Shown piece by piece: positions 11,915 to 55,000 of a DNA stretch of 64,000 nt. The translations under genes were made by a program, and so were the position numbers. Position 1 is the stretch's first letter. Every line of letters begins with the position of its first letter. The notes beneath the pieces were generated by a model. That model saw only the letters and a list, made by a program, of their open reading frames with translations. It made no database searches and was not told where the DNA came from. Source of the DNA: Malacoraja senta (Eukaryota); NCBI GenBank assembly GCA_038087875.1, contig CM075987.1, positions 22,446,001 through 22,510,000 of the forward strand, read 5' to 3'.

Positions 11915-13575
11915 TGCCTTTGCCAAAAGGTGGCTCTTAAAATGTGGGAGGTGGTTCAGGTTTTCCAGCCATGAGCTTTGTCATCAGAGGGCGGCATTGC
12001 ACAGAATTGTGGAGGATAGACTTGGCCTCATTGCCATCCAATGTTCCATTCAGCTGGTCAATGCCATGTTACCTATTCTTCATGGAAGATTTCTTTCAGA
12101 AAAACATCTTTGACCACAAGTCTATGAGGCAGTGGTCAGCACGGAACATCCTGCAGATCTTGTGGGTCAAAGACACGAATGGATATTGAGGGGCGTTTCC
12201 CTGAGCAGATTACCCAAAACATCTGTCAGAATTCTTCATGATCGGAACTCACCAACAAGCACTAAGACCTTGCTTGGCTGGTATTGAGGGGGCCTTCCTT
12301 GTCAGATCCCTCCTGTTAAGTTGGAATCTCAGTCACAATGCACCCTGCTCTCATGGTGGCTGCGATGAGAATGGGACAGTTGCTCACTTCTCTGTGGACC
12401 GTGCATTTGCAAAGAAGGTATGAAGAAGGATGCAGGGAGCCTCGTTGCAGTTCACCTCGAGCAAGTGAACAACAGAAGACTCTGTTCCTAGTACTGCAGG
12501 AAGGTCATCAACTCGGTGAAAGAGATACTTTGTTCTGCCCGGAGCTTGTTGGTCTTCTTCTTCTTGCATATGGCATGCACAGCCTAAAGTTGTAGGACAA
12601 CTTGTTCTATTTGATCATATTTGATTGTGCACGCTAGGTTGATTGCATTTGTTGAAACAAGGCGGACCACGTGAAGGTTGCAATCTCCCACCCCAGCTTG
12701 TTGGTGTTCTGGTGCAACAAGATGTCCATTAGGGAATGCTGCCAACCAACACATTGCAGACTGCAGGAGTGCATGCTGAGGGACAGCCAGCAAAAGTTTT
12801 GTGGGGAAGGACTGGAGTATAGGTTCTTCTGCCACTGGACATTGATGGCTTGGTGTAGTATGGAAGCCTCTTAAACACTTGAAGTCTGTGTTGTCCCAGG
12901 AGCCCATGAGTGCCAATGATGCATAAATATGTTACACTCATCATCTGTGATCACTCGGAGTCGAGTATAATGATCCTCCCAGTGGGGTTCTCCAGTTGGA
13001 CACCTCTGTGTGACATCTTTTAACATGGGGAGACTGGTGCACAGACCGCTAACACATGTCCTTGACAGAGACAATCCCGGGTCCAATGCCATGGACTCCG
13101 CATGGATACTTCTGTTGGATCTCTTCTGCCGCCTTCTTCTGTCTTCTCAGCCATTGTGATTTATCATCTGCTAGTCAACCACGATCTATTTAAGGGTCCC
13201 TACCTGTAATATTGCCTATCCATTCCATCCACATATGCTGCCTGACCCACTGAATTGTAGTGAAAAGCATGTGGTGTTTTGCTCAAATCAGCATCTACAG
13301 TTCTTTATGTCACTATCCTCCACCTGTTTCACTGTTGAGGTCTTCTTGGACTGTAATTTGTCAGGAACCTCCCCCTCGACCTGCCAACCAAGGGTGACCA
13401 TGCCATGAGCATATCTAGTACAAGATCCTGTGCGCATTACACTTCCAATGTATAGAGCTGATTACACTGAATGTATGGACTGCACAACACCACCAATGGA
13501 AAGAGGCCCATGCACTATATTTTTGGTAATTCTATATTTTTTACAAATAAAGTTTATTTTGAAATTTAAAAAAAC
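11915..13575 (+). mobile_element. Tx1-clade LINE 3' remnant with internal insertions
   Basis: Frameshifted zf-RVT-like peptides (HQ..DLAWLVLRGA, TVAHF..DRAFAKKV, RECCQ..HCRLQECMLRD). Ends in aataaa plus an A-rich tail near 13546-13575. Confidence 0.55.
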
Positions 13576-13617
13576 AGGTTGATGGAGCACCTTTGTCTTG
13601 CAGATGATGTATTCAAG

Positions 13618-13917
13618 CAGCATCTCATATTTCGCTTGGGTAGTTTACACCCCAACGGTATGAACATTGACCTCCAATTTTAGGTAGTCCCTGCTTTCTC
13701 CTTCTTTCCCCTCCCCTTCCCAGCTCTCCCACAGCCCACTGTCTCCGCCTCTTCCTTTCTTCTTCCCGTCCCCCCCATCCCCACATTGTCTGAAGGGTCT
13801 CGACCCGAAACGTCGCCTATTTCCTTTGCTCCATAGATGCTGCTTCACCCGCTGAGTTTCTCCAGCATTTTTGTCTACCTTCGATTAATTCCAGCATCTG
13901 CAGTTCCTTCTTAAACA
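13618..13917 (+). mobile_element. 5'-truncated Penelope-like element with TSD
   Basis: QHLIFRLGSLHPNGMNID.. ORF end, pyrimidine-rich UTR and terminal repeat. Flanked by tattcaag at 13610-13617 and 13918-13925. Confidence 0.8.
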
Positions 13918-16900
13918 TATTCAAGGCACAACCTCTCTTCTGCTTCAGAAGATGAGCCAATGGCTTGGAGAAAGCAAACACAAGTGTGCTCTGCATAACG
14001 CAGCACAATTCCCAAGGTTTGGGTGACCTTGGTTGGGGAATGCAGTTGCCACAGTTGAAGAGTTTTTCACTAACTCTGGAGATTAACTCCAGTCCCCCAG
14101 GAAGTTCATTGCAGACGAAGTGCAGCATCGCAGAGATAATGATTGCAGAAAATGTCAGGACAGTGATGAAGCTTGTTCGAGGATGGTTCTTACTTAGATT
14201 GGCTCTGTTGACTGGGAAAATACCTTGCATGCCATCATGAAACAAACACAAGATCAGGATTAATTTTTATGGGGAATCAAATTTGAGGAGAGCATACCAC
14301 AGAATCTTCTTGATGCACAATAGGACATGAAGTGCTGGGGTGACTCAGCAGGTCAGGCACCATCTCTGGAGAACATAGATAGGTGACGTTTTGGGTTGAT
14401 ACCCTTCTTCAGCCTGTAGCTCTCGACTCGAAAAGTAGCCTATCCATGTTCTCCAGAGATGCTGCCCAACCTGCTGAGTTGCTCCAGCACATTAGGTCAT
14501 TTTGTGCATTAATCGGCATCTGCAGTTCTTTGTTTCTGCATCTTCATGATGAAGGAAATTCCACAATAGGATTATTCCTAATGAAATGTTCATGAATATT
14601 AGACTTAGAATGCTGTTGTGCCTCAGCTCAGTAATTTGCAAGAGTAAATAGATGACTAAGACAGGGAATCATTCAACACAAGCTGCAAAGAGAATTCAAT
14701 CTGAACCACAGAGGTTGCGTCCTGAGATCTTGGACAAGGTGCACACGAGACATTAGGAAATAGCCGCCCGCGCATGCAGATTGAGAAATTATCGTGCAAA
14801 AGCTGGAGAGAAATTTGGTGAAGTCCACATTGACCACTTAATCCTTGTGAATGATATCTGGGAAAATAGCATAGGACTGTAGGATCGAAGATGTTTCTGA
14901 AACGTCCAACTATTGATCAAGAGAAGTACACATGTGATGTTTCTAGCAAGAGTCAAGGTGAATCGACATCACTAAGTCTGGAATGGGAGTGCCTGCACCA
15001 ACATCTAATGAATCTATGTCTTCAACACGTAACAGCAGCACCACTGTGAACATCAGAGTGTGGAACTGCTGACTTGGCTACGTTTGTAAAATTTGTAAAT
15101 ATGCCAAATCAATGTTTTGTTTTGTTTTAAAGAGCGTAGTCTATGTAATATTGATTGTGCTCAGTGATTACTATCTTAAAGGCTTTCACCCTTTAAGGAT
15201 TGTGTCATGTGACTAACTGCTCTCTGGGCTGCAAACAATGCTCACAAAAAAGTTCTAGAGACAGTCAGTCTACGATGAGCACTCAAATAAACCACATGCA
15301 CTCTGCTTAAGCCCCCTCAGCACCCCCATATCCCTGTGGATTCTGCAAAGGAGGTTGAGAACCCACTGAGCGCATTGTCTTCAGGGACCAAGCATCAGTG
15401 AGGAATCAGGCAACAGAGTTGAGTGAAATCAAGTTCACAGGAGGTTGAAATTACCACAGTAAATTGGGTTTAGAAATAACTTAAACATGGTTCAGCTCTA
15501 TTTCCTCTCAAGCTGGAAAATTTGTGATATCCATTGATGGTGATCATTACGTATACTTTTAGCAACAGACAGGAGAGAAAGACAGCGTAGCAACTTGGTT
15601 TTAATGTACAAAAATGTCCCAAAGTCGTTCACGGTGACAGCATTAGACTCTTCAACCCCTTTTGTCCATTCGGCCATTCAGTTAGATACTAGCTGGTCAG
15701 TCAACATCTTGATTTCATAACACCAAGCTAATACAATGTTGTCAATCACAACAACTTTAGTGCTTTAAATTGTCCCATGTTTACATAAATATTAATGATA
15801 GGCACAAAGAAAGGCTTAGTAAAAGAGGTGGTTTTATGAAACATTGTTAAAAAAGAAAGAGACGGAGGCAGTGGGGAGGGGGGTGGAATTAGAGAGAGGT
15901 TTAGTGCTCAGGGATCGTAGAGTTGGAAGCTATGTCAGAATGATAAATAAAGGTACAAAACTGCATTTTGAAGAGAGTTCTGGGTTGGCATCATCCTTTA
16001 GATGAAGGATTGTTTTCTGACTGCACCCACTCCTCATGTGCTCCTTTTCCATTCCAACCAGTCCACCTCAGTTCTCTCTTCCTTTGTTCACCTTTTCAAA
16101 ATCCCACAACCCACTTTAGATTCATTAACCGCTTCCACTGGTTGAACCTGCCCCTCAGCCACACACCTATCCATCTTGGCTTCTTCTCCTCAAGTCTACT
16201 TTCCCATCGCCTCCCCCATCAGCCCATATTCCTCCCTTATCTGGTTCTGCTCGTTACCTTTCAGCCTCAATCTCCACGTTCTCCCCCACCACATTCCACA
16301 AACCTGGCTCCACCTGGCCATTTATTTTTATTGGGGAAGGGTCCCGACCCGAAACATCACCCGTCCATTCCCGCCCCAGATGCTGCCTGGCCTGCTGAGT
16401 TACTCCAGCAGTTGTATTTCACTCACGATTCCAGCATATGCAGTTTCTTGTGTCTCCAATTTTTTTAAATTTATATAAACACTTCGATTATAATATAACA
16501 TAAGCTTCCATGTTTCATTTAAACTGTTGTATTAACTTAAGCATTGTAGTGCCAAAGAATAAGGACAAAAAAAAATGAACTTGGGAGTCAAAGACAGATT
16601 ATTGCACAGTTGATCATGGGCTTGCACAAAGAAGGATCTCAAAGGAGGAGATGGAGTTAGCGAGGAAGAGATTTAGGTCTATATCGAGGCAGCTGAAGAT
16701 GATGGTGTGGCGCTTGGGGGGGTTGGAAAAAACTGCGCTTGCCATTAGGACTACATTCCCGTCCATCAGCGCAGCCTGGAGACCTAGTGTGTCGGAAGTG
16801 CAGCTGGTTATTATCTCTCTGCACTTACTGGAGTCAACTGCACTGATGATATTCTGCTCTTTAGCAACAAAAGAGGAAAAGGCCACCTACCCTCATTACA

Positions 16901-21290: not shown

Positions 21291-21305
21291 GATGCTTGTG
21301 CAATT

Positions 21306-21517
21306 AGATAAGACACACAGGCCAGGGGGCAGGCAGCATCTCTGGAGAGAAGGGATGGGTGCTTCTTCAGAAGAAGGGTCTCGGCCCATTCCTTCTCTCC
21401 GGAGATGCTGCCTGTCCCGCTGAGTTACTCCAGCATTTTTTTTGTGTGTGTGCAAATCAGGGCAAATCGGCATCTGCAGTGTAGTGTAAATCAGCATCTG
21501 CAGTTCCTTCATACACA
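21306..21517. mobile_element. Palindromic Penelope-derived short element with 11-bp TSD
   Basis: TSD cttgtgcaatt at 21295-21305 and 21518-21528. Confidence 0.8.
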
Positions 21518-21840
21518 CTTGTGCAATTGTTTCTCATCTGGTGTGTAAAAAAAAACACGTGTAGGAAGGATCTGCAGATGCTGGTTTACACCGAGGATAG
21601 ACACAAATTGCTGGAGTAGTTGAGTGACTCCGGCATGTTGAGCCTATCTCTGGGGAATAAACGCGTTTGAATGTGTTGCTGTAATGTGCTGGGGTTTGTA
21701 GATTTGGCACAAGTTGGAAGCGCGAAAGCCTAGTGCTTTGGATGTTGAGAGTCCCAAATAAAAACGCAACGCTGGAAACGACTGTCAAATATGTTTTATT
21801 TTAACATGTCCCAGATAGAACAATGAAATTCTTAATTGTA

Positions 21841-21913: not shown

Positions 21914-22065
21914 CCTGGTCACAGATGCTGCCTGGTCTGAGAGTTTCTAGCATTTTTGTTTTATTACAATAGTGATTTGCTGCTGAGCTGAATCCTATAA
22001 ACATTTAAGTCACCATTGGCTGAGAATTTAGATTTTTTTGGAAAAAAAATACACATTACTGAGAT

Positions 22066-22191
22066 CTGAAGAAGGGTCTCGACCCGAAACTTCGCCAATT
22101 TCCTTCGCTCCATAGATGCTGCCTCACCCGCTGAGTTTCTCCAGCATTTTTGTCTACCTTCGATTTTCCAGCATCTGCAGTTCCTTCTTAA
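22066..22191 (+). mobile_element. Penelope-derived short element with 14-bp TSD
   Basis: Begins at CTGAAGAAG. TSD acattactgagatc at 22053-22066 and 22192-22205. Confidence 0.85.
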
Positions 22192-22284
22192 ACATTACTG
22201 AGATCCGGTCTCATACAGCATAGAAAGAGGCTTTACAGCCCAACTTGACTGACATGCCACATCTAAACAAATCCTATTTACTTT

Positions 22285-22377
22285 CTGAAGAAGGGTCTCG
22301 ACCCGAAACATCACCCATTCCTTCTCTCCATAGATGCTGCCTCACCCGCTGAGTTTCTCCAGTATTTTGTGTCTACC
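22285..22377 (+). mobile_element. Penelope-derived short element with 13-bp TSD
   Basis: Begins at CTGAAGAAG. TSD tcctatttacttt at 22272-22284 and 22378-22390. Confidence 0.85.
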
Positions 22378-25300
22378 TCCTATTTACTTTGTTTGGCCCT
22401 TATCCCTCTAAATCTTTCCAATCCATGTAGGTTAGTTTAGTTTAGAAATACAGCACGGAAACAGGCTCTTTGGCCCACCGAGCCCATGCCAACCAGCGAT
22501 TCCTGAACACTAGCACTATCCTACACACTAAGGATAATTTACAAATGTTACCAAAGCCAATTAACCTACAAACCTGTATGTCTTTGGAGTGTGGGAGGAA
22601 ACCGGAGCACCCGGAGAAAACCCACGCAGTCACGGGGAGAATGCACAAACTCACTTGTCCAAATGTCTTTTAAATGTTGTTATTGTATCCGTATCAATTA
22701 CTTCCTCTGGCAGCTCGCTCCATACATCCACCACTGGAAAAAAAATGGCCCTGCGGTTTCTATTAAATCTTTCCTCTCTCACCGTATGCCTATGTCCTCT
22801 AGTTCTTAATTTCCCCATTCTATGACAAAAATACTATGCATTCACCCTGTCTATTCCCCTCATTATTTTAAGCACCTCTCTAAAATCACCCTTACGTCTC
22901 CAGCGCACCAAGGGATAAAGTCCTAGCCTATACAATCTCTTTCTATAGCTTAGGTGTTTGAGCCATGGCAACATATTTGGAAATCTCTGCACCCTTTCCA
23001 GCTTAATGGCATCTTTCCTATATCAGGGTGTCCAAAACGACATAATACCGCAAGTGAAGCCTCACCAACTGGGTTATTTTAAAGAACAGATACAAAGGGT
23101 GGCGGGTGAATGGAACAAGCTGCCAGAGGAGGTCGTTAAGGCAGGGACTATCCCAACATTTAAGAAACAGTTAGACAGGTACATGGATAGGACAGGTTTG
23201 GAGGGATATGGACCAAGCGCAGGCAGGTGGGACTAGTGTAGCTGGGACATGTTGGCTGGTGTGGGCAAGTTGGTCCGAAGTGCCTGTTTCCACACTGTAT
23301 CACTCTGTGACCCGATGACTCTATCAGATGATATCTTTGATGTATAGTGAGTTTTTCTTTTGAATTGATCCCGACTGCTTTGAAAGCCCAGGATGGATGC
23401 CAAAACCTAAAGACCAGAGCCAGAACGTTGAGGAAAGGTTAGGCAACATTTTTTCACACGGATGGTATAAATTTGCAACTCTCTTCCATAAATTGCAGTT
23501 GATGCTATGTTAATTTATATGTACTCAAAATTTGAGAGTGTTAGATTTTTGGTAGCCAAAGTCTTTAAGATTATGGAGTGAGATCACAGATTAGCCTCGA
23601 ACTCATGGAATGTTGGAAGGGGTTCTAAGAGCTAAATGGCTTCCTGTTCTATTTTCACTTACACTCTCATGCACACAGCTTTAAGATATCTTACATTTCT
23701 CTGGAATCATAAATGTGGGAAAACATCCTAAGGTGTTTCAGTGGCGGGCAAGAGGGGGTTACAAAGTCAAAATGGGAGTGTTGCTCAATCGATGGCAATG
23801 TGGGTCCGTGAACTCAGAGGAAATAGGTGCATAGGTAAACATCAGGATGTTGGATGAAGTCAAATTTGCGAAAGATGGAGGATTGGTGCCAATCAAGAAT
23901 GCTTTGGAATTGTCATCAAGAGGCACAAAGGACATGGAAGAGTTTCAGCAACAAAGAGTTGGGACTACACCAGAACTGATTAATAGAGGTGTAAGTATGT
24001 GGTTTCATTGGTGCACAACTATGTGCTCATAGCTCAACCTAGGGTTAGATACTATAGTAAATAAGTCAGGTTCGGTCTCAAGACAATTAATGAGAGAAGG
24101 ATAGAGATTGTGATTGCAAAACTGAGGGACTGAAATTCAGGATTTAGGCCATCATACCCAACTCAACCACTACTTGATATCAGACTGGCATTTTGAACAT
24201 TTAGATACAGTTGAAAGTTGAATGAAGGGCAGTAATGAATGTTGTGATTCATACTAATATCCATATCCATATTAATACTTGGTCACCAATTCTCTAAGAT
24301 TGCAAACATTTTACAGTGGATGAAGGTTATTTATTGCTTTGAGTCTGCACCACTTAGAAAAGCACTACCCAACCTCTTACTCCTTTGGGAAGGAATTAAT
24401 AACATTCTGGTTCCCTGCAGCAGGACTGTGAGTGGAGAGGGAATATAGCTAGTAAAATGAGAATAAGAGGAGGGATGAAAGAGGGGGCAGTCAGTGATAG
24501 GTGGACAGAGGAGGACTGAGGGAGGATTGGTAGGGCAGAGCAAGGCGGGGAGGAGACAGCTGGGGTTTGGATACAAAGGAGGATGGGTGATAGGTGGAAA
24601 CAGAAAGGAACCTGGTTCCCTACAATTTTGCTGTTGCTTCTTTAACATCGTGGTACATATTTCACCTGGGCTTCGGCATTCACCCACTTCGAAGATGACT
24701 AATTAATTAAAGTTCCTTACCAAGCCATTTAATATTTCACACCCGTCCTCTGTAGTTACAACAGCATCAAACCTCTGATGTGAAATTGACCACAAAGTAC
24801 TCTTCAAGATGTTTAGGCACATCCTCTGCTCAGATAACTTAGTTATCTTCTAACACAAAGGGCTAGAATGTTTAAATCATTTTGGGGGGTTTATTTTACT
24901 TAAAAATATTTTTCAATTCTCTTTACACTTTCTCAATTTCCCTATTAATTTCACCCCTTCATTTCCTTTACTCTTTGAAAATTTCTGCAGTAATCCCCGG
25001 AGTCTGCAGGGATTAAGGATTAATCTCGGCTATGAGCCAATGATAAAGATGTGAAGCGTGAAACAAATATCCTCAACATATTGGTAATCATGGATAGACG
25101 ACTTGTGTGAGTCATAAGGTCATAAGTGATAGGAGAAGAATTAGGCCATTCGGCCCATCAGGTCTACTCCGCCATTCAATCATGGCTGATTTATCTCTCC
25201 CTCCTAACCCCATTCTCCTCCCTATAAACCCTGAAACCCCTGGGAGGTTGGAAGTGAGAGATTCTGAGATTCAACTTCTAAGTATTCTCTTAATTCGTAT

Positions 25301-26152: not shown

Positions 26153-27180
26153 CTGACACAAAGTGTTGGAGTAACTCGGCAGATTAGGCAGCATCTCTGG
26201 AGAACATGGATAGGTGACATTTCAGGTAGGGGCCTTTCTTTAGACTGAAGATATAGGTGAGGGGGTTTGATTGGGTGATCGGTTGACAAAGGCTGGAGAT
26301 GAAAAGAAAACAAAAGGATGTGAGGTAAGGAGAGAGAAGGGTGGAATGTGAAAAAGAGGAGAAGTGTGAAAAGAAGCATCTTCTGTCTTGGGCCTCCTCC
26401 ATTGCCTGAAAGACGCCACATAGACTGGAGGAACAGCCCTTCATATTCCGTTTGGGTAGCCTACAACCTAACGGTATGGACATTGAATTCTCCAATTTTA
26501 GGTAACTAACCAACAAATCCCTTCCCCCCCCCACCCCCATCTCTCTTCTATGCCCCCCCCCCCTTGAAGCATACCCATTTCTCCCACTATCGTGGCACCC
26601 TTTACCTTTCCCCTTCCCAGGGTCCCCTTGCACCTATATCCTTTCCTCTGGTTTCACTTTCCACCCCTCCTCTCCCTATCTTGCATCCTTTTGTCTTCTT
26701 TTTATCTCTAACTTTTATAAGATTATTAAGGGTTTGGACATGCTAGAGGCGGGAAATATGTTCCCGATGTTGGGGGAGTCCAGAACCAAGGGCCACAGTT
26801 TAAGAATAAGGGTAAGCCATTTAGAACGGAGATGAGGAAACACTTTTTCACACAGAGAGTTGTGAGTCTGTGGAATTCTCTGCCTCAGAGGGCGGTGGAG
26901 GCAGGTTCTCTGGATACTTTCAAGAGAGAGCTAGATAGGGCTCTTAAAGATAGCAGAGTCAGGGGATATGGGGAGAAGGCAGGAACGGGGTACTGATTGT
27001 GGAAGATCAACCATGATCACATTGAATGGCAGTGCTGGCTCGAAGGGCCGAATGGTCTACTCCTGCACCTATTGTCTAACTTTTGTCTGCCTATCTGCCA
27101 TTCAAATCCCCCTCACCTATTATTTGCCTGGCTTTGTCCTGTCCTCATTTCTCTTCCAGCTTTCTCTCCCCTACTACAAT
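26153..27180 (+). mobile_element. Penelope-like remnant: inverted pseudo-LTR, endonuclease end and 3' UTR (interrupted by CR1)
   Basis: 26153-26375 is the terminal repeat on the minus strand. 26380-26506 encodes SVLGLLHC..RLEEQPFIFRLGSLQPNGMDIEFSNFR*. A CR1 insert lies at 26715-27078. Confidence 0.75.
26715..27078 (+). mobile_element. CR1-clade LINE 3' fragment
   Basis: Same sequence family as 41540-41898. Confidence 0.9.
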
Positions 27181-27380
27181 NNNNNNNNNNNNNNNNNNNN
27201 NNNNNNNNNNNNNNNNNNNNNNNNNNNNNNNNNNNNNNNNNNNNNNNNNNNNNNNNNNNNNNNNNNNNNNNNNNNNNNNNNNNNNNNNNNNNNNNNNNNN
27301 NNNNNNNNNNNNNNNNNNNNNNNNNNNNNNNNNNNNNNNNNNNNNNNNNNNNNNNNNNNNNNNNNNNNNNNNNNNNNNNN
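27181..27380. other. Assembly gap (200 N)
   Basis: Run of N. Confidence 1.
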
Positions 27381-29609
27381 CACTCATAATCGTAGAAGGT
27401 CTGACCAAAATGAATATGACAGAACCATTGCCATTGCAGGAAGTGTTAAGTACCAGATAATATAGATTTAATGTTATAAAGCAATGGGCTAAAGTGGCTC
27501 AAGAATAAAGCGTGACATTGAATCGTAGAGTCATACAGCATGGAAACAGGCCCTTCGGCCCAACTTGCCCATACCGACCAACATGTGCCATCTACATGTC
27601 CCACCTGCCTGCATTTGGTCTGTATCCCTTGGATCTAAACCTGTGCCATCCATGTACCTATATAAATATTTCTTGAACGTTGCGATTGTCCTGTCACAAC
27701 CACCGCCTCCAGCAGCTCGTTCCATACACCCACCACCCTTTGTGTGAAAACGTTACACCTCGGGTTTGTATTAAATCTATCCCCCCTCATCTTAAACCTG
27801 TGTCCTCTACCCTGGGTAAGAGACTCTGCGCGTTTACCCGATCTATTCCTCTCATGATTTTGTGGACTGAGGAAATAAAATTCACAGCAAGTAATTGTGA
27901 TCAGGAATTCATTGCAAGAAGGAATTGTGGAAGTATATTTCATACACACATATTAAATAGATAATTGAGATAGAAAAAATAAAGGGCATAGGAAGTGTTT
28001 TGGACTTTTTTTGCTTTTTCCTTTACAATGACCACTTTTCCATTCAGAACAGATGCAAAATTCTGACTCAGAACGTCAGTATTCCCTCTGATTCCAGATC
28101 TGGTGTGGTGCTTGTTCGATCTCCCTGTGACCACATGGGTTCCTTCCAGTGCTCCGGTTTTCTCCCACATTCCAAAGACAGGTTTGTAGGTTAAGTGGCC
28201 TCAGTAAATAAGCCCCTAGTGTGTAGGGACTGGATGCAAAAGTGGGATTATATAGAACCGGTGTGAATGGGTGAGCGACAATCGGTGTGGGTTTGGTGGG
28301 CCGAAGAGCCTGTTTCCATGCTGTATCTTTCAATTAAAAAAGACGCCCCTCATTCCTTTGATTCTCGCCCTTGTCTGAAACATTACTCCTCAAAATGCTT
28401 ATTCTGTTGACTAAAATCTTTATTCAAGTGTTGTATCAAGGTCTTGAACTCCTTCCTTCTTAACTCATCATTTCTAATATTTACCATAACAACAGTCCCT
28501 CGTCCCCCCTCTAATGTTCAGCCATGATCATAATGAATGGCGGTGCAGGCTCGAAGGGCCGAATGGCCTACTCCTGCGCCTATTTTCTATGTTTCTATGT
28601 TTCTATGTTCTGCATCTTTCCAGTCATCCCTTTACCCAGTAGTATGTAATGCAAGGCACAATGTGGGACTCACTTTGGCTGTTGATGTTTAAAATGTAGA
28701 ACAGTACAGCACAGGGGAAGAGGCCCTACAGTCCACAATGTCGTGCTGAATATAATGACTAATCTTAGTGCCTGGCTGCACATGATCCATACCCTGCATA
28801 TCCATGTGTCTATCCAAAAGCCCCTTAAATGCCACTATGGTCTCTGCCTCCAATACCACCCCTGGCAGTGCGTTCCAGGCACCCACCACTCTTCGTCTTT
28901 CTTCAGTCCATTTCCTAAAGACTGAACCCCTGACAAGGTCTAAACTCCAACAATGTGCAGCCCTTTGTCCAAAGGAGTTGTATTATTTTATACACCCCCC
29001 CCCCCACCCCCTCCCTCTCCCAACTCCCTCGCTTAGAAAGCAGCCAGTATATCATAGCCAGGCTATTTATTATTGAAAATATAAGTCACTTGAACTCACT
29101 TCCAAGTTTGTTAATCAATGTGTAAACATCCTAATCCCTCAAGTAGATTTCATCCTGTGACGCTCTCCAAGATTCTCGCTATTTTGTATAACAGACCACA
29201 CAAACGCCCAGATTAGATTCCAAATAGTAATTCACTCGCGGGTATGTGTTATTCTAGATATAAACCGCCCAAAACGCTCCATCAGGTTCGAGTCTGCATC
29301 TCACCCCCGGCACCGTTAATCCTTGTATCCAAGGCTCCATACCTGGATTGAATCTTAGCCTCTGTAAAAGGGACACATCAGTCCGTTATTCCACGTGGAA
29401 ACCACCAAACCCCGGGGACACGTTCCAAGACCCAGTTGCGGACGGCAGCGATTCCCTGGCACATCATATTGGGCAACACCAGGGGCGAGGAGGGAGGGGA
29501 GGGGAGGGGACCATTTTATTATCGTCTGCTTTTGGGTTTTTTTTAATTTAAATTGTTTTTTTGGAGCTTTCTGGCGGAATTTCAAAATCAGGAGTGCTGT
29601 TGTTGCGGG

Positions 29610-30145
29610 TTGGGGAGGCGGGGGGAGGGAGAGGGGAGAGGGGGTGAGAGACAGAGGGGGTGAGACAGAGGGGGTGGGAGGGAGGGAAGGAGAGAGAGAT
29701 GGGAAAGGCGGAAGGGAAAGAGGGAAGGGGAGAATGGAAGGAGAAAGGGAGTGAGGGGAGAAGGGGGAAGGAGAGAGGGAATGGAAAGGAAGAAGAAGAC
29801 GGTGGAGAGGGAGGGGGAAAGGGAAGGGAAGGGAAGGAGTGATGGAAGGGGGAGCGAATGAAGGAGAGAGGGAAGGGGGAGAGAGGAAAGGGGGAGGAAA
29901 AAGGAGGGAGGGGGGAGAGAGGGAAGGGAGGGACGGAGAAGGGAGGGAGAGAGAGGGAAGGGAGGGACGGAGAAGGAGGGGAGGGAGAGAGAGGGAAGGG
30001 AGGGCCGGAGAAGGAGGGGAGGGAGAGAGAGGGAAGGAGGAGAGAGGAAAGGGGGAGGAAAAAGGAGGGAGGGGGGAGAGAGGGAAGGGAGGGACGGAGA
30101 AGGAGGGAGGGGAGAGAGAGGAGGGATGGAGGGAGGGAGGTGGAG
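29610..30145 (+). repeat. Polypurine (GA/GGGA) low-complexity tract upstream of Prrx exon 1
   Basis: Nearly pure A/G over ~530 bp with recurring gagagagggaagggagggacggagaa units. Confidence 0.9.
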
Positions 30146-30479
30146 ACAACGTTTAGCCCCGGCTGAGTCACGGCAGAGGTTAGAGTGGGCGGCGGTGGCG
30201 GCGCTAGGAGTTGTGTAACAGTCCCGTGGGGGGAGTGGGCGGCAACAACTGACAAAACTCCTGAAAGACTTCTTTTCGTATCCGTCAGCAAGAAGTGGGG
30301 AGAGTTCGGCAGCGAGACAAAAGTTGTGAGAAGTTGTGAAGAGTTGTGGGGGACTGAGGGGTGGAGGGGGGGGGTGGGGGGATCTGTGTCGACCACGGGC
30401 CGGGGGTCAGGGTCGGGGCCGGGTTGGGGAGGGGAGGGGAGGGGAGGGGAGGGGAGGGGAGGGTGATCTGTTCAAACTG

Positions 30480-30720
30480 ATGGAAAAACCGGTCTCTCTG
30501 TGTCCGGCCGGGCTGGGGACGCCGGAGGCCGTTCAAAACAGAAAGAGTTTCTCGGTCAGTCATCTGCTGGATCTGGGAGAGGCGCCGGGCATGAACGGTG
30601 GCACGGAGCCGACCAGGGGGGCGAGGGAGAGCGGCCGGAGAACCAGGGATCAGCCCGGCGGAGGCGGAGGAGGAGGAGGAGGAGGAGGAGGAGGAGGAGG
30701 GGAGGCGGCTCGGCAGAACG
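30480..30720 (+). CDS. prrx2: Prrx-family (PRRX2-like) paired-related homeobox gene, coding exon 1
   Basis: ATG at 30480. Translates MEKPVSLCPAGLGTPEAVQNRKSFSVSHLLDLGE...QP(G)15EAARQN; FSVSHLLDL is the Prrx N-terminal eh1-like motif. Ends at canonical donor AACG|GTGAGT (phase 1). Paralogue assignment is provisional. Confidence 0.9.
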
Positions 30721-31076
30721 GTGAGTGATGGGTGGGGAGGGGGGTTGTTTAGGACTCGGGACTGGACGGGGCGACGTGGAACCTACCCCGAGCCCACCCG
30801 GTAACTACAGCCCACAATAATGTCAGACATCAATGTAAGAAAGAAGGATCCCAACTAAGGGAATCTGAAGAAGGGTCCCAACCTGAAACATTCCCTCCCC
30901 AGATGCTGCCTGACCCTCTGAGTTCCTCCAGCACTTTGTGTTTTGCTAAAGAATTGCAATATATTAGGTAGAAAGGAACTGCAGATGATGGTTTAAACCG
31001 AAGATAGATACAAAGTGCTGGAGTAACTCAGCGGGTCAGGCAGAGTCTCTGGAGAAAGGGAATGGGTGAGTGAAGT

Positions 31077-31104
31077 CTGAAGAAGGGTCTCGACCCGAAA
31101 CGTC
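31077..31104 (+). ncRNA. Minimal hammerhead-ribozyme-like core in a Penelope pseudo-LTR
   Basis: CTGAAGA-A-GGGT(CTCG)ACCC-GAAAC-GTC: conserved CUGANGA and GAAA boxes, 4-bp stem II, palindromic ACGU stem III, GUC triplet. Confidence 0.7.
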
Positions 31105-31880
31105 ACCCATTCCTTCTCCCCAGAGACGCTGCCTGTCCCGCTGAGTTACTCCTGCATTTTGTAATTGTAACATGGTAAATATAATTCAAATTGGAAGTGA
31201 TTCCTGGGTGTTTGTAGATTAATATGCTGGCGGATCAGTGTGAGATGCTGAGGGGTTTGACAGGCTTTGGGTGGGGGTGGGGGTAATTGTTCCCTCCTGT
31301 GAGAGGGTTCGGAGCGAGGGGGTCACAGTTTATGGATCAGGGGGCTTCTCCCGGTTATGAAAGCGACGAGACGATTGTCCATTCTCCCCGAGGATACTGA
31401 GACTTGGGTAAGACTCTGCATCGAAGCGCGGCAGAAGCAGAGCCTTGGAATGTGTTTCTTAAACATAGAGGTAGATAAACACTTGATAAGCAAGGAGGTG
31501 AAAGGTCACTGGAGGAGAGGAATGCGGAGTTTACAATCACACCAGCCACGATCTTGTCAGAATAGGCTCGAAGGGCCGAGTGGCTTACTGCTGCGCCTGA
31601 ATTCAGATGTAGAACTATGTTCAAGAGTCTGAAGAAAGGTCCCGACCCAAAACCTCGCCTGTCCACCTCCCCCCCCACACACACCCCCACCCACACCCCC
31701 CACACACACACCCCCACCCACACCCCCCCGCCCCACCCACACCTCCCCCACCCACCCCCCACGCCTGTCAACAATTCGGGTCGAAGAATTCCATCCAACA
31801 ACTTTGTCTTTTAGTTCTGCGTAGTTCTGCTCCAGAGTCAAAAGTATGCCTTTCATTGGAGTCAAAATACTAATCTTAAG

Positions 31881-32032
31881 TCAGTCTGACTTAACCAGTC
31901 TGAGGAAGGGTTTCGGCCCGAAACGTTGCCTATTCATTCCCATCGCTCCATAGATGCTGCTGCACCCGCTGAGTTTCTCCAGCACTTTTTGTCTACCTTC
32001 GATTTTCCAGCATCTGCAGTTCCTTCTTAAAC
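31881..32032 (+). mobile_element. Penelope-derived short element with 12-bp TSD
   Basis: TSD actaatcttaag at 31869-31880 and 32033-32044. Confidence 0.85.
31900..31927 (+). ncRNA. Hammerhead-ribozyme-like core, variant subfamily
   Basis: CTGAGGA-A-GGGT(TTCG)GCCC-GAAAC-GTT; stem II kept via U-G wobble with a UUCG loop. Same variant at 51696-51723. Confidence 0.65.
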
Positions 32033-33697
32033 ACTAATCTTAAGCAATCCGGTGACCCCAATATATTTCCTAGAATTTGTTTCGCTGTCCAGACACTGCA
32101 ATTTTTTTTTCTGATTTGTTTGTTATTGAGGAAGATTAGTGACTCAGACTTGCCCGGTCCCCACTTCCTGCTAACGTGTCCCTCTCCCCCTGTCCCTCTA
32201 TCCATGTACCTATCCACCCGGGTCCAATAGCGCACTGCTATCACGCTGCACTGGTTGGGATCCAGAGACAAGAACGTGGCTTTAAATCCACCCGGCAACT
32301 GTCTTAAATCATGTATCTGCAATTAAAAGTTAATATCAGTAATGGTGGCTGTGGGCAGACAGGGATGAAGGGGGATCAGCCAGGCTATTATCAAGTGCTG
32401 GAGCAGGCTCGGGAGAGCGAGTGGATTAGAGTAAAAAGCAGGGATCAGTGAAAGTGGCCGTGAACCTTTCAAATTGTGGTTAAAACTCCACATGGTTCAC
32501 AGTTGCCTTTGGGTTAGTCTGACGGTTCCTCCCCTAATCTCAAGCAGTGCGATTCCAGACCCAGAGGATATCTACCCCACTTAATTCAGACGCATTTAGG
32601 GTCCTTTAATTTATAACAACCAGGATAAAGGTGTAAGGAATGGTGCTAAATTATTGCAGGGCCAGGGGTGGAGGGTAAAAACCAGGGGTGGGGAAGCTTT
32701 TCATGTTGGAATGCCACATTAAGTTAGCTGTAATCTAATAAGGCCAAGAAACTTCAATTAGATATACTTCAAAATGTACATAATATTGTTAAAATAGCCC
32801 TCATGCCTTACTGATGTTTTAATTGTGGCCGTCAGTCAGGGAGGATTATTTTGTTGAATTTTCTTTTTCCTCTTTAGTATTTTAAATACGTTCATTTTAA
32901 GATTAAAATAAAAATAATAAAAGACAAACAAAAGCATATTAATAAAAATAAAAGGATTTGTTCTACAAAATTTGGATTCATTCAGAAGGCCTAGAAGGCC
33001 GCAGGTTCCCCACCCCTGGTATAAACCTTCAATATGCCAGGATCTTATATGGGGGGAGAGAGCAACAGGCAGAGGAGAATGATCGCCTCAGGGGAGAGAG
33101 CAACAGATGGGAAAAAGGGAGACTGCGGTACTGTGGGAGAGGGATAAGTTTGGCGGAGAAAGTAACAGAATGGGGAGAGAGTGACCCTTCACGATTTCCA
33201 TCCACCATTATTTTATTTTTAGGCTGTGCGGTCCGATGATTATCATTTAGATAGATTCTACTTCATGGAAAGTCTGTGTCCAAACTTTACAGAGTTTTAA
33301 GTTTCAAAAACTCACAGGCATGTTTCTAGAGGTTTCGAATCACACCATTCAACAGCTTTCAACGTGTTCCTCTCTTGTGCTGTCTTAATAAGGTTGCTGT
33401 TCTGGCTTCAGTTATGTGTACTCTCTTCCATCTCAGCTTCCAACTCTGTTTCCACCATCGCACTGATTCTCATCTTCAGTTTTCTTCTATTTATTGCAGT
33501 GAGTGCCATTTTGAACATTTATTTTTGAACAGATTCTTTCATTCTGTCTATACAAAGCTGGCCGCCTGTCTAGCACTTTAACAGATGCCTGGACTACACC
33601 ACAAGCCACTGTGTGTGTTCTCTCTTCATCACTCTTTCCTGAAGCATTCTCACCTCCATCTTACTCAGTATCCTTGCTTGAAGTTTCTCCAGCGAGT

Positions 33698-37000: not shown

Positions 37001-37162
37001 GAGTTTACGTGTTCGCTCTGTGACCGCGTGGGTTTCCTCCGGGTTCTCTGGTTTCCTCCAACATCCCAAAGTCATGCGGGTTTGTAGGTTATTTGGCCTC
37101 TATAAGTTGCCCCTGGTGTGTTGGGAGTGGATATGAAAGTGGGAAAACATGGAACTAATGTG

Positions 37163-37710
37163 CAAGAAACAACTGCAGATGCTGGTTTAAATCGAAGATA
37201 GACACAAAAAGCTGGAGTAACTCAGTGGGACAAGGCAGCATCTCTGGAGAGAAGGAATGGGTGACGTTTCGGGTCGAGACCCTTCTCTAGACTGGTTAGT
37301 GATTTGGGAAACGAGAGATATAGACGGAGATGTGGAGAGATAAAGAACAATGAATGAAAGATATGCAAAAGATGATAAAGGAAACAGGCCATTGTTAGCT
37401 GTTTGTAGCTCTTTGGTTTGTAGGGTGAAAACGAGAAGCTAGTGCGACTTGGGTGGGAGAGGGATAAAAAGAGAGGGAATGCCAGGGCTACCTGAAGTGA
37501 GAGAATTCAATATTCATACCACTGGCCAAGCGAAATATGAGACGCTGTTCCTCCAATTTGCGTTTAGCCTCACTCTGACAATGGAGGAGGCCTAGGACAG
37601 AAAGGTCTGTGTAGGAATGGGAAGGAGAATGAAAGTGTCCGGTAACCGGGAGATCAGGTAGGTTCAGGTGAGCTGAGCGAAGGTGTTCCGCGAAACGATC
37701 GCCCGGTCTG
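37163..37710 (-). mobile_element. Penelope-like retroelement 3' fragment (GIY-YIG endonuclease C-terminus plus pseudo-LTR), inserted in a SINE
   Basis: Peptide GDRFAEHLRS...LPVTGHFHSPSHSYTDLSVLGLLHCQSEAKRKLEEQRLIFRL..GMNIEFSHFR* resembles the end of PLE GIY-YIG domains. It is followed by a pyrimidine-rich UTR and the common terminal repeat. Confidence 0.85.
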
Positions 37711-38307
37711 TAAATGGGCAATCGATGGTTGTCATAGACGATGTGATAAATGACCTGTTTCCATGCTGTACCTTTCAATCAATCAAATAAGAAATCAACT
37801 TTATCATGTTTATTTATTACAATTCTTTATTCCAGATTCTTAAAGACTAAATTCAGATCCTTATAATGTCCCAGTGTGGGATTTGAAAACATATTGTCTG
37901 GATTTATAATCCAGTATCAGAATCACAGTGCCCCAGAGTTGAAATCCTATGTAAAGGAATCAATGACATTTCTGAAGAATGCAATCCCTATCAGAAATAC
38001 AACACATTTAGATCTAATATAACCAAGGTCTCTTTATACATTTTAAATGGTTCAACCGTAAGTTAAATGTCATTTGTAGAAACAAGGAACTGCTGATGCT
38101 GGTTTACACAAAAAGTCATAAAGTGCTGGGGTAACTCAGTGGGTCAGGCAGCTTCTCTTGGATAGGTGGTGTTTCGGATCTGAAGAGGGTCCCGATACGA
38201 AACATCACCTATCAATGTTCTCCAGAGATGCTGCCTGAATCACTGAGTTATAGCAGAACTTTGTGTCCTTTCTATTTAAGTTGTACATGTTAGTTCAATC
38301 CCGTTCC

Positions 38308-45069: not shown

Positions 45070-45305
45070 GTAACGGCCCAGCGGCCACACCCACGGCTGC
45101 AGCCCCTCCCCCCCCGCTCGCGGTCGCATGTCATTGTAACTGTCCCTCCCACTCTCGCACCCAACACATCCGTTTCGGCCTCGCCCATCGCCAGAGAGAG
45201 GCCTAACGCAAAATGGCAGAACAATACCTCGTATCTCGAAGGTAGACACAAAGTGGTGGAGTAACTCAGCGGGACAGGCAGCATCTCTGGAGAGAAGGAA
45301 CGGGT

Positions 45306-45333
45306 GACGTTTCGGGTCGAGACCCTTCTTCAG
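45306..45333 (-). ncRNA. Hammerhead-ribozyme-like core in an inverted Penelope pseudo-LTR
   Basis: Reverse complement is CTGAAGAAGGGTCTCGACCCGAAACGTC, identical to 31077-31104. Confidence 0.7.
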
Positions 45334-45561
45334 ACACGGGCAGCTGGTACTGAGTGGTTTGTACATTGAACTTTCCAACTTCAGATAGCCCATGCCCTCA
45401 TGTTCCTCTTCCACACACCCTCACCCATCCATGCTGTTTTCTCATTTTATTCATCTCTCCCATCCTCCACCCCTAACTGATTCCACCTGCCCATCATCCC
45501 CTCCCCCCCTCTAGTTCAAGCTATCACCCACTGGTCTCTATCCCCTCCCTCCCGCTCTTAT

Positions 45562-50278: not shown

Positions 50279-51834
50279 ATTGACGTATCACAGCCAAGAG
50301 GTGGGAAAGGGAGGGAATCCCAGGCTTGGGTCCCAGGTAACCGAAGATTGGTGCAGCAGGAAAATCTGGATGTTCAAGAGGCCCAAATGGAGCCACGCCA
50401 TTGGACCTTAAAGCATGAGAAAGTTACTGCCCGGGGAAGGGGTCTTGTCACCGAGAGTTCAGGGTTCAATTTTAAAATATGCATAAACACTCAAGCAAAC
50501 ATAGCGAGGTTGAACAAACTTACATTGTTATCTCTGGAAGGTTTTAGGTGGAGAGGAGACCTTATAGAAGTATATAAAATGACGAGAGGCGTAGTTAGGT
50601 TAGACAGTCAGAATCTTTTCCAAGTGTGGGAATGCTAAAGACTAGAGGGCACAGCTATAAGGTGAGAGGGGCAAAGTTTAAAAGAGATGATCAGGGCAAG
50701 TTTTTTAACCACAGGGAATAGTGGGTGCCTGGAACGTGCTGGCAGGGGTGGTGGTGGAGGCAGATCTGAAAGGGGCTTCCAGCCTCGTTTGAGAGGCTTT
50801 TTGATGGATATGCAGCGTATGGAGGGGTGTGGATCATGTGCATGCGGAGATTAGTTTAACTTGGCATCATAATCAGCATGGACATTGTGGCCGAAGGGCC
50901 TGTTCCTGTTACAATAACCTATAGCTCTTTAAGCACAGTGTGTATTAGCACAGCGTACAATGTCCACTGGGGGCAGTGTCCATGCAGTCTGCACCTTGCT
51001 GGGTTAGGGGTTGCAGTGAAGCCTTTAGTTGGGCTGAAGGGCCTGTTCCTGTGCTGTACTGTTCTGTGTTCTAAGCTATAAACACCTCACCCTTCCATAT
51101 CTCTGGCCTCCCTCTCCCTCGACTCTCAGTCTGAAGAAGGGTCTGGACCTGAAACGTCACCCATTCCTTCTCTCCAGAGATGCTGCCTGAGTTACTCCAG
51201 TCTATCTTCAGTATAAACACATTGGGCTGTTTTAATTAATCTGCTGCACGCAAGAGCTGACATGTAAAAAAAATGCGTATCAAGTAGTGATTTTACCTGC
51301 TGGTACCATCCACGTTTCAAGCACGTTGCCAGGCTGGAGTGAATTGTTCCCTCTTTGTCCCGTCTGCATCTGGGCCTCTCTCTCCCTCTCACTCACTTTC
51401 TCTCTCTCTTGTTTTGCTTGGCAATCCTTCTCTTGGACAGAAGATTTTAATAACTCTGGGACTTTGATAACGATTCCCAAAAATCATTATTGAGGGGAAA
51501 AATATCCAGTAACGACCTAACTATTAAATATAAGAACAATCCCTTGAGCAGTGGCTGGAGCCAGACAGAAAGCAGACACACTGGAGAAGGCCTGGACTTT
51601 AACGCCTCTGATCCATCGCTACTCGTGTATTCCAACTTTGTTAGAAACATCATGAGAAACAATTAGACACATCTCATTGGACTATGATACTGAGTCTGAG
51701 GAAGGGTTTCGGCCCGAAACGTTGCCTATTTCCTTTGCTCCATAGATGCTGCTGCACCCGTTGAGTTTCTCCAGCACTTTTGTCTACCTTCGATTTTCCA
51801 GCATTTGCAGTTCCTTCTTAAACACACAGATTCC

Positions 51835-52034: not shown

Positions 52035-55000
52035 GTGCTAGACAGGCGGCCAGCTTTGTATAGACAGAATGAAAGAATCTGTTCAAAAATAAATGTTCAA
52101 AATGGCACTCACTGCAATAAATAGAAGAAAACTGAAGATGAGAATCAGTGCGATGGTGGAAACAGAGTTGGAAGCTGAGATGGAAGAGAGTACACATAAC
52201 TGAAGCCAGAACAGCAACCTTATTAAGACAGCACAAGAGAGGAACACGTTGAAAGCTGTTGAATGGTGTGATTCGAAACCTCTAGAAACATGCCTGTGAG
52301 TTTTTGAAACTTAAAACTCTGTAAAGTTTGGACACAGACTTTCCATGAAGTAGAATCTATCTAAATGATAATCATCGGACCGCACAGCCTAAAAATAAAA
52401 TAATGGTGGATGGAAATCGTGAAGGGTCACTCTCTCCCCATTCTGTTACTTTCTCCGCCAAACTTATCCCTCTCCCACAGTACCGCAGTCTCCCTTTTTC
52501 CCATCTGTTGCTCTCTCCCCTGAGGCGATCATTCTCCTCTGCCTGTTGCTCTCTCCCCCCATATAAGATCCTGGCATATTGAAGGTTTATACCAGGGGTG
52601 GGGAACCTGCGGCCTTCTAGGCCTTCTGAATGAATCCAAATTTTGTAGAACAAATCCTTTTATTTTTATTAATATGCTTTTGTTTGTCTTTTATTATTTT
52701 TATTTTAATCTTAAAATGAACGTATTTAAAATACTAAAGAGGAAAAAGAAAATTCAACAAAATAATCCTCCCTGACTGACGGCCACAATTAAAACATCAG
52801 TAAGGCATGAGGGCTATTTTAACAATATTATGTACATTTTGAAGTATATCTAATTGAAGTTTCTTGGCCTTATTAGATTACAGCTAACTTAATGTGGCAT
52901 TCCAACATGAAAAGCTTCCCCACCCCTGGTTTTTACCCTCCACCCCTGGCCCTGCAATAATTTAGCACCATTCCTTACACCTTTATCCTGGTTGTTATAA
53001 ATTAAAGGACCCTAAATGCGTCTGAATTAAGTGGGGTAGATATCCTCTGGGTCTGGAATCGCACTGCTTGAGATTAGGGAGGAACCGTCAGACTAACCCA
53101 AAGGCAACTGTGAACCATGTGGAGTTTTAACCACAATTTGAAAGGTTCACGGCCACTTTCACTGATCCCTGCTTTTTACTCTAATCACTCGCTCTCCCGA
53201 GCCTGCTCCAGCACTTGATAATAGCCTGGCTGATCCCCCTTCATCCCTGTCTGCCCACAGCCACCATTACTGATATTAACTTTTAATTGCAGATACATGA
53301 TTTAAGACAGTTGCCGGGTGGATTTAAAGCCACGTTCTTGTCTCTGGATCCCAACCAGTGCAGCGTGATAGCAGTGCGCTATTGGACCCGGGTGGATAGG
53401 TACATGGATAGAGGGACAGGGGGAGAGGGACACGTTAGCAGGAAGTGGGGACCGGGGCAAGTCTGAGTCACTAATCTTCCTCAATAACAAACAAATCAGA
53501 AAAAAAAATTGCAGTGTCTGGACAGCGAAACAAATTCTAGGAAATATATTGGGGTCACCGGATTGCTTAAGATTAGTGTTCAAGAAGGAACTGCAGATGC
53601 TGGAAAATCGAAGGTAGACAAAAAGTGCTAGAGAAACTCAGCGGGTGCAGCAGCATCTATGGAGCGAAGGGAATGAATAGGCAACGTTTCGGGCCGAACC
53701 CCTTCCTCAGACTGATTAAGTCAGACTGACTTAAGATTAGTATTTTGACTCCAATGAAAGGCATACTTTTGACTCTGGAGCAGAACTAAAAGACAAAGTT
53801 GTTGGATGGAATTCTTCGACCCGAATTGTTAACAGGAGATAGGGAACTGTAGATGCTGGAGTCTTGAGCAAAACACAAAATGCTGGAGGAACTCAGCGGG
53901 TCGGGTGGAGTCTGGGGCGGGGGTGGTGGGTGGGGGGGGCGGGGTGGGTGGGTTGGGGGCGGGGGGGGTGGGGGGCGTGGAGGTGTGGGTGGGGGGGGAT
54001 GTGTGGGTGGTGGGCGGGGGTGTGTGTGTGGGTGGGGGTGTGTGGGGGGGGCGAGGTGGACAGGCGAGGTTTTGGGTCGGGACCTTTCTTCAGACTCTTG
54101 AACATAGTTCTACATCTGAATTCAGGCGCAGCAGTAAGCCACTCGGCCCTTCGAGCCTATTCTGACAAGATCGTGGCTGGTGTGATTATAAACTCCGCAT
54201 TCCTCTCCTCCAGTGACCTTTCACCTCCTTGCTTATCAAGTGTTTATCTACCTCTATGTTTAAGAAACACATTCCAAGGCTCTGCTTCTGCCGCGCTTCG
54301 ATGCAGAGTCTTACCCCAGTCTCAGTATCCTCGGGGAGAATGGACAATCGTCTCGTCGCTTTCATAACCGGGAGAAGCCCCGCTGATCCATAAACTGTGA
54401 CCCCCTCGCTCCGAACCCACTCACAGGAGGGAACAATTACCCCCACCCCCACCCAAAGCCTGTCAAACCCCTCAGCATCTCACACTGATCCGCCAGCATA
54501 TTAATCTACAAACACCCAGGAATCACTTCCAATTTGAATTATATTTACCATGTTACAATTACAAAATGCAGGAGTAACTCAGCGGGACAGGCAGCGTCTC
54601 TGGGGAGAAGGAATGGGTGACGTTTCGGGTCGAGACCCTTCTTCAGACTTCACTCACCCATTCCCTTTCTCCAGAGACTCTGCCTGACCCGCTGAGTTAC
54701 TCCAGCACTTTGTATCTATCTTCGGTTTAAACCATCATCTGCAGTTCCTTTCTACCTAATATATTGCAATTCTTTAGCAAAACACAAAGTGCTGGAGGAA
54801 CTCAGAGGGTCAGGCAGCATCTGGGGAGGGAATGTTTCAGGTTGGGACCCTTCTTCAGATTCCCTTAGTTGGGATCCTTCTTTCTTACATTGATGTCTGA
54901 CATTATTGTGGGCTGTAGTTACCGGGTGGGCTCGGGGTAGGTTCCACGTCGCCCCGTCCAGTCCCGAGTCCTAAACAACCCCCCTCCCCACCCATCACTC

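Follow-up and report, generated by a model that had tools for sequence, protein, structure and literature searches.

A minimal hammerhead-type motif carried by a highly amplified Penelope-like element of Malacoraja senta

A 28-nucleotide sequence that recurs along a 64-kb stretch of Malacoraja senta DNA (the window) raises three questions: whether it is a hammerhead ribozyme, what element carries it, and whether it cuts RNA. At 31077-31104 on the plus strand it reads CTGAAGA-A-GGGT-CTCG-ACCC-GAAAC-GTC. A preliminary description, made from the letters of the window, had pointed to this site as a hammerhead-like motif, had given coordinates for further copies and had put their number above 20, and all of this was borne out. 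When at most 2 mismatches are allowed, the pattern CTGANGANGGGTNNNNRCCCGAAAC has 22 matches on both strands of the 64-kb window; in 100 dinucleotide-preserving shuffles of the window the mean was 0.00 and the maximum 0. A 27-mer search that tolerated as many as 6 substitutions gave 26 sites. Copies with zero mismatches to the degenerate pattern lie at 22066, 22285, 31077, 31900, 45309(-), 51696 and 54622(-). Those at 22066 and 22285, earlier called near-intact, deserve the label, their changes being confined to the ACGU/GUH part (GAAACTT and GAAACAT).

The sequence is abundant far beyond the window. The exact 28-mer occurs 9,309 + 9,419 = 18,728 times in the 1.94-Gb assembly, and the reversed string 0 times. 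A profile of the motif and the conserved tail that follows it (159 positions, built from 28 seeds) finds 129 copies in 224 kb, made up of the window and 160 kb elsewhere. The window contains 53 of these (9.4% of its bases) and the 160-kb sample, sixteen arbitrarily chosen 10-kb stretches on other chromosomes, contains 76, 38 per strand (4.8% of bases). The claim that this genome is saturated with the family is well supported by these figures. By extrapolation the genome would hold on the order of 0.9 million tail copies, the copy statistics resting on the window and 160 kb of arbitrarily chosen loci. The entire motif is still covered in 74 of the 129 profile copies. Of the strictly intact motifs, 5 lie in the window, where a duplicate block accounts for one, and 3 in the 160 kb; a strict hammerhead descriptor gives 34 matches in ~330 kb and 0 in the reversed sequence.

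The hammerhead motif and its copies in the window

The motif contains the CUGANGA ... GAAA ... NUH boxes in type-I order. An extra A follows A9 in 95% of 127 copies, and the G10.1-C11.1 pair is present in all strict copies. Pair 11/32, followed through 61 decayed copies, is GC in 36, GU in 10 and AU in 4. Helix III is replaced by the loopless palindrome ACGU (15.2-16.2), as first described, and C15.2 and G16.2 are lost mainly through CpG decay. Helix I consists of 2 bp, GU with AC or, in the second subfamily, GU with GC, which agrees with the ~2 bp given originally; 74.6% of its cells are paired and further positions are unable to pair. The cleavage triplet is GUC in one subfamily and GUU in the other. 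The reported loop II variants (CUCG, CCCG, UUCG, CUUG) were all found, as was the A-U/G-U swap in stem II, which replaces U-A by U-G at 10.4/11.4 of the helix.

At gathering score, Rfam found no hammerhead family in the whole window. At E <=10, searches of 1.3 kb and of 60 nt around the motif gave no hammerhead and only microRNA-like hairpin noise. The missing match is expected because the motif has no helix III, and it is a negative result all the same. The Rfam family Hammerhead_1 (RF00163) shares with the motif the catalytic core and the type-I order of elements; its covariance model is unmatched by a motif without a closed helix III or a real helix I. No other hammerhead family with a different helix II was found in the ~330 kb searched.

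Minimal hammerheads (min-HHRs) were described in 2014 in the pseudo-LTRs of Penelope-like elements (PLEs) from fishes, amphibians and reptiles (Cervera and de la Pena 2014, PMC4209133); a literature search judged by titles and abstracts found none on PLE hammerheads in cartilaginous fishes. The likeness between the motif and the min-HHRs of metazoan PLEs (PMC4209133) extends to several levels. First, the CUGANGA and GAAA boxes, the unpaired nucleotide at A9/G10.1 and the G10.1-C11.1 pair are common to both. Second, both have no loop III and are palindromic at 15.2-16.2, which implies a dimer. Third, the hammerheads occupy both pseudo-LTRs and fall into consensus families within one genome. Fourth, they occur as thousands of dispersed single copies and as opposite-strand pairs 100-700 bp apart. 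There are also differences. Helix II is 4 bp here compared with 7-8 bp in the Schistosoma families, and helix I is 2 bp compared with 4-5 bp, a D. virilis variant also having 2 bp; the range for helix I in PLE hammerheads is 2-5 bp, with 2 bp as its lower bound. Sequence variety is low here, two variants predominating, and the family greatly exceeds the 2,000-9,000 copies per genome reported before (PMC4209133). By its identity the motif is very probably a minimal type-I hammerhead of the kind found in PLE pseudo-LTRs.

The copies and element fragments of the window are collected in Table 1.

Table 1. Hammerhead motif, element copies and element fragments in the 64-kb window
Feature	Position	Strand	Remarks
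Minimal type-I hammerhead motif	31075..31104	+	Predicted cut after 31104; parts: GU (helix I 5' side), CUGAAGA, extra A, GGGU/ACCC with loop CUCG, GAAA, ACGU, GUC
Short element copy, motif and ~115-nt conserved tail	31073..31217	+	Profile positions 5-146
Inverted, 5'-truncated arm	30960..31069	-	Profile positions 35-144; pairs with copy at 31073
Decayed copy; helix II and stem III altered at CpGs	30861..30954	+	
Second-subfamily copy (UUCG, U-G at 10.4/11.4, GUU)	31895..32043	+	11-nt direct repeat on flanks
Short copy within 14-nt target-site duplication	22063..22201	+	Start <=1 nt from C3 of CUGA box
Short copy within 13-nt target-site duplication	22283..22386	+	Start at C3; shorter 3' end class
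Intact copy, antisense to homeobox exon 140 nt away	45209..45336	-	
Intact UUCG/GUU-subfamily copy, ending at assembly gap	51691..51827	+	
Copy running on upstream into element 3'UTR and ORF end	37149..37295	-	
Decayed GIY-YIG C-terminal fragment of PLE ORF	37491..37778	-	End ~200 nt upstream of motif
PLE ORF C-terminal fragment	13570..13680	+	Motif ~105 nt downstream of its stop
Copy linked to the 13570-13680 fragment	13792..13920	+	CUGANGA box hit by deletion
PLE ORF C-terminal fragment	26379..26502	+	3'UTR interrupted by repeat 26706-27080, then N run 27181
Four copies duplicating 30861-32043	53566..54862	-	Inside 6.2-kb inverted duplicate

Because they lie inside a ~99%-identical inverted duplicate, the copies at 53684, 54067, 54620 and 54832 repeat those at 31900, 31629, 31077 and 30865 and do not count as independent. 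The 6.2-kb block 27381-33576(+) recurs in reverse complement at 52035-58329, and each of the two blocks starts directly after a run of 200 Ns (27181-27380 and 51835-52034). An artefact of scaffolding or of haplotypes is the probable cause; otherwise the arrangement would be a very young inverted duplication. C-rich, CCCCCACACACA-like low-complexity tracts occupy 31666-31770 and 53913-54058, in place of the tail of the decayed copy 31624-31662.

The window copies had been thought to lie, several of them in sense orientation, in intron 1 of a Prrx gene. The sense orientation is no bias, the window copies being 31 plus and 22 minus (binomial p = 0.27). The gene assignment is not established. For one homeobox exon, 44887-45069(+), the Pfam Homeodomain score is just under the cut-off and the sole PDB match, to PRRX2, is weak (E = 0.008). 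In runs X5 and X6 this exon forms part of longer spliced contigs.

Linkage to a Penelope-like element

The motif is a physical part of a Penelope-like element that encodes a reverse transcriptase (RT) with a C-terminal GIY-YIG domain, and it is present in both pseudo-LTRs of the element. Decayed frames upstream of three window copies end in ...LEEQ.LIFRLGS..NGMNIEFSNFR-stop. Pfam searches of 101 ORF pieces from the window found neither RT nor GIY-YIG. Because the window fragments are too short or too decayed for Pfam, BLASTP against an ORF of the genome itself (P0121) was used, and fragments 13570-13680+, 26379-26502+ and 37491-37778- match its C-terminus with E = 1e-8, 8e-10 and 7e-29, respectively. 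Three copies had originally been described as linked to GIY-YIG C-termini; all three fragments are real, and the motif is seen downstream of only two of them (13787+ and 37264-). The 3'UTR of the third fragment, 26379-26502+, reaches the gap at 27181 exactly at the expected motif position. The segment 26706-27080 is a different interspersed repeat, inserted in the 3'UTR of a PLE copy.

P0121, which lies at locus L022 and is itself decayed, has YIDD, a CxxC linker and LIY...YIG, and aligns with P0007 over 475 residues at 48% identity. P0007 itself has 893 aa, and both Pfam domains exceed their cut-offs there (RVT_1, 30.9 bits against 29.6; GIY-YIG, 28.0 against 22.6). In a genome search with P0007, 51 of 68,561 first-look candidates were scored. 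All 51 span residues 163-891, and 49 of the 51 have no internal stop, with open frames of 754 to 1,302 aa. The PLE family therefore seems to have been active recently.

The motif lies 114-200 nt past the ORF end at L022 (two copies), L023, L024 and L041-L045. At the five loci with long open ORFs a strictly intact motif is present in every case, and in all five the triplet is GUU. A full tandem unit was found at L046 and L041, L046 being the upstream extension of L041, with the motif and tail upstream of the ATG too. The order is the ORF end of the upstream unit, a pyrimidine-rich 3'UTR of ~115 nt, the motif, a tail of ~130 nt, another ~35 nt and then the ATG, which lies ~165 nt downstream of the motif; the 3'UTR, motif and tail come again after the second ORF. 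Such a partial-tandem, or pseudo-LTR, organisation defines PLEs. The ORF linkage, the motif in both pseudo-LTRs and the min-HHR traits together support the original view that a hammerhead-bearing PLE family is present.

Two features of the coding region are recorded here. At L041:46-3690 it consists of 368 aa, a stop and 846 aa, and at L043:49-3687 it is a single 1,213-aa frame; the layout could be an upstream ORF1 or a read-through arrangement. The linker of the homologue P0007 is C-X4-C-X2-C, of which the decayed P0121 keeps only CxxC. An extra Zn-finger-like linker, CX2-5CxxC, between RT and EN is typical of the Neptune and Nematis clades of PLEs. As a lead only, the CX4CxxC of P0007 suggests a Neptune-like and not a Poseidon affiliation. 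Locus L024 also carries, at 2034-3050(+), a 339-aa frame with Tc1/mariner-type transposase domains (HTH_Tnp_Tc3_2, 3e-25; DDE_3, 2e-12).

The layout matches that of PAc, the Poseidon element of Anolis carolinensis. In the accessible part of its description (PMC11167929), PAc shares with the present element the tandem pseudo-LTR, a hammerhead near the pseudo-LTR/ORF junction, insertions that end shortly downstream of the hammerhead, and inverted structures. It differs in that, according to the same portion of that source, the ORF of PAc starts inside the hammerhead, in helix II, and not downstream of the motif as it does here.

Boundaries of the short copies

The aligned copies have in common the motif and ~100-145 nt downstream of it, and their upstream sequences differ. 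Among 70 copies of the unbiased sample that reach the 5' edge of the motif, 22 continue into the element 3'UTR, 18 meet an inverted arm and 30 meet unrelated DNA; thus 48 of the 70 stop within ~6 nt upstream of C3. In the 30 copies with an unrelated flank, similarity fades over -1 to -6, T(-1) being present in 24, G(-2) in 16, A(-3) in 20 and C(-4) in 14. A conserved TCAGT adjoins this edge directly upstream of the motif, and we take it to resemble an initiator. Direct repeats of at least 11 nt flank 7 of 116 copies tested compared with 2 of 576 mismatched controls, and they put the first element base at -1 to +1 of C3 in 4 of 6 independent cases, the others being at -12 and -19. The hot spot of 5' ends shows at 22063 and 22283 of the window, at L011:815 and L025:7099, and at other sampled copies; short copies with 12-15-nt target-site duplications start at -1 to +1. 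Thousands of assembled contigs from four runs and three organisms match the tail, and their homology to the family stops 2 nt upstream of C3; being contigs, they show neither RNA ends nor transcription. At the other end, copies terminate in classes near profile positions 105-109, 130-134 and 140-149, which fits internal reverse-transcription starts at more than one site.

The inverted arms produce conspicuous hairpins. The segment 31010-31160 (also bounded as 31009-31163) forms a hairpin of 150 nt with almost perfect pairing (-101.8 kcal/mol, z = -12.6). It is the head-to-head pair of 30960-31069 (minus) and 31073-31217 and not a property of the family. Similar head-to-head pairs lie at 14285-14533, 20336-20586, 21285-21526, 38080-38270 and 42159-42393. 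Inverted pairs have been described for PLEs (PMC4209133, and in the accessible part of PMC8557442), and have been explained in vitro by extension from both target strands, as given in the part of PMC11167929 at hand. Judging from such in-vitro work on the Anolis PLE, reverse transcription would start inside the tail and both target strands could prime. Short copies of motif and tail would result, as would inverted pairs placed head to head, of which the hairpin at 31010-31160 is an example.

It is rather unlikely, in our estimate, that the dominant unit is a defined RNA of ~100-145 nt, with its 5' end within ~6 nt of C3 beside TCAGT, and not a random truncation of the PLE. If the edge were a transcription start, the internal RT start in the tail would be the first one met on every element mRNA. 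Short cDNAs of motif and tail would then be the default product, which would account for about a million copies and also for the need of PLEs for tandem units to copy their ORF. RNAs of this kind would be without any helix I, and the motif would be kept for a purpose other than cis-cleavage. Only one feature may be new, namely that the short copies have a defined 5' boundary at the hammerhead edge, which is described here and not explained.

Constraint, cleavage and alternative readings

The majority of copies are dead and their decay is neutral, with CpG to TpG or CpA in CUCG, CCCG and ACGU as the most frequent changes. At the level of copies the covariation signal is nil: in 64 copies, 78.6% of cells are paired compared with 79.1% in shuffles, 410 of 500 shuffles being at least as high, and the covariation score is 0.178 compared with 0.181. 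The ~330 kb contain a single stem II sequence type, with U-A to U-G as the sole change, so that no compensatory change is available. The retention of stem II noted at the outset therefore stands in that its change is compatible with a wobble pair, and does not amount to covariation.

A signal of constraint was found at the level of subfamilies. In a test on 180 copies, from which 11 seed-selected copies and the duplicate-block copies had been dropped beforehand, non-CpG variants reached at least 15% at 0 of 21 hammerhead-constrained positions, at 3 of the 7 free ones, namely H17 and two sites in loop II, and at 19 of 65 tail positions. With subfamilies few and related, Fisher tests gave p = 0.011 for constrained versus free positions and p = 0.005 for constrained versus tail. 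Changes that distinguish subfamilies fall only at N7, in loop II, at the U-A to U-G pair and at H17 (C to U), all of them positions at which a hammerhead tolerates change. Where the subfamilies differ does speak for selection on the motif in master lineages. The motif is not uniquely conserved, as the tail has invariant runs of its own of up to 11 columns.

Folding of the monomer RNA is no better than that of shuffles (z from -0.9 to +1.1), and the minimum free energy structure often pairs GAAGAAGGGU with the tail instead. An alternative fold drawn from these predictions, GAAGAAGGGU with ACCCAUUCCUUC, is not conserved and was rejected, because its 3' strand falls where the tail varies most and its 5' strand is invariant. 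A distal helix, in which upstream ATCTCT would pair with AGAGAT of the tail and so close helix I, was seen, by eye, in only some 3'UTR subfamilies and was also set aside.

In a lone copy helix III would be unable to close and helix I would have 2 bp only; therefore two sense copies per transcript would be expected to pair. Joined through their ACGU palindromes, they would form a dimeric hammerhead, which could cut after GUC or GUU and so process multi-unit element transcripts. Templates cut in this way might leave copies that begin at the predicted site. The 5' starts of 190 copies are at the motif 5' edge in 115, at 10-29 in 48, at 30-34 in 6, at 35-39 in 5 and at 40-44 in 0, with no pile-up at the predicted cut (profile 36/37). 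In other PLEs in-vitro cleavage is weak and dimer-dependent (PMC4209133). As far as the accessible text of PMC11167929 goes, hammerhead mutants insert normally in vitro and RNA-seq reads ending at the cut site are absent. No sign of cleavage appears here, and a catalytic role is therefore no more than an inference. Self-cleavage in vivo may be real, the chances lying at or slightly below even.

The strongest competing explanation is that a hammerhead-derived shape has been kept which is no longer a ribozyme here, its 28 nt serving the element in some other way. This could be as a promoter-proximal transcript start, or as an RNA recognised by the RT or the endonuclease. The sharp edge favours such a role: 48 of 70 copies stop there, the 4 of 6 duplication-flanked copies that start at -1 to +1 of C3 would derive from RNAs without the 5' strand of helix I, and the apparent likeness of TCAGT to an initiator points the same way. 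The lack of covariation and of any fossil trace of cleaved templates among the 190 copies is likewise consistent with it. So are the mutants without effect on in-vitro insertion (PMC11167929, in the part available) and the success with which PLE clades without hammerheads proliferate (PMC8557442, likewise in part). A promoter or binding role alone would not, however, predict exactly the CUGANGA/GAAA/NUH pattern, and all subfamily changes fall at hammerhead-tolerated positions. The same core is also kept in PLEs from fungi to vertebrates, some of its versions being active as monomers (PMC4209133). Loss of the ribozyme function is, on these grounds, improbable.

Alternatively, the short unit of ~100-145 nt could be a separate non-autonomous parasite of the PLE machinery, similar to a retrozyme or a SINE. 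Its 5' boundary is sharp at the motif, the edge being reached by 115 of 190 copies with only 22 of 70 unbiased ones going on into the 3'UTR, and animal retrozymes have been argued, in the accessible part of 10.64898/2026.07.22.740005, to derive from PLE pseudo-LTRs. Insofar as the available portions of PMC7229834 and 10.64898/2026.07.22.740005 describe them, metazoan non-LTR retrozymes share with the present copies the type-I topology, the kinship to PLE pseudo-LTRs and the short non-coding units, and are distinguished by tandem arrays, circular RNAs and canonical hammerheads. The present copies carry a minimal motif and are scattered, either alone or in inverted pairs. A search of the window for head-to-tail arrays repeating every 100-500 nt found none, which tells against the retrozyme-like alternative of the preliminary description; neighbours on one strand, 212-565 nt apart, were inserted separately, and two of them have target-site duplications of their own. 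In addition the short copies are co-linear with the pseudo-LTR of the ORF-bearing units and matched to it by subfamily, and the hammerhead is of the minimal PLE type, that of retrozymes being a canonical type I in which loops make contact. A separate parasite is thus very unlikely. A chance resemblance to the hammerhead core in an unrelated SINE or LINE tail, for which the absence of an Rfam hammerhead match might be cited, is scarcely credible in view of every core box and four independent min-HHR traits being present, the position in PLE pseudo-LTRs, the 34 descriptor matches against 0 in reversed sequence, and the ORF linkage that contradicts it.

The whole is probably explained by a min-HHR in the pseudo-LTR of a canonical PLE, with RT and C-terminal GIY-YIG, whose amplification has produced about a million tail copies. 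The motif is real but ordinary, of a known PLE kind and in a hugely amplified family. The value of this genome lies in scale and freshness: intact motifs run to tens of thousands, long stop-free frames persist in dozens of the element copies scored, and the tail makes up ~5% of the sampled DNA. It offers a natural data set for the in-vivo cutting of the motif, for PLE transcript starts and for the dominance of short copies of motif and tail. There is also a consequence for annotation, as many long perfect hairpins formed by these copies mimic microRNA precursors in Rfam-type scans; the paired-tail hairpins of the window give weak microRNA-precursor hits, with E down to 6.5e-09 and far below gathering scores.
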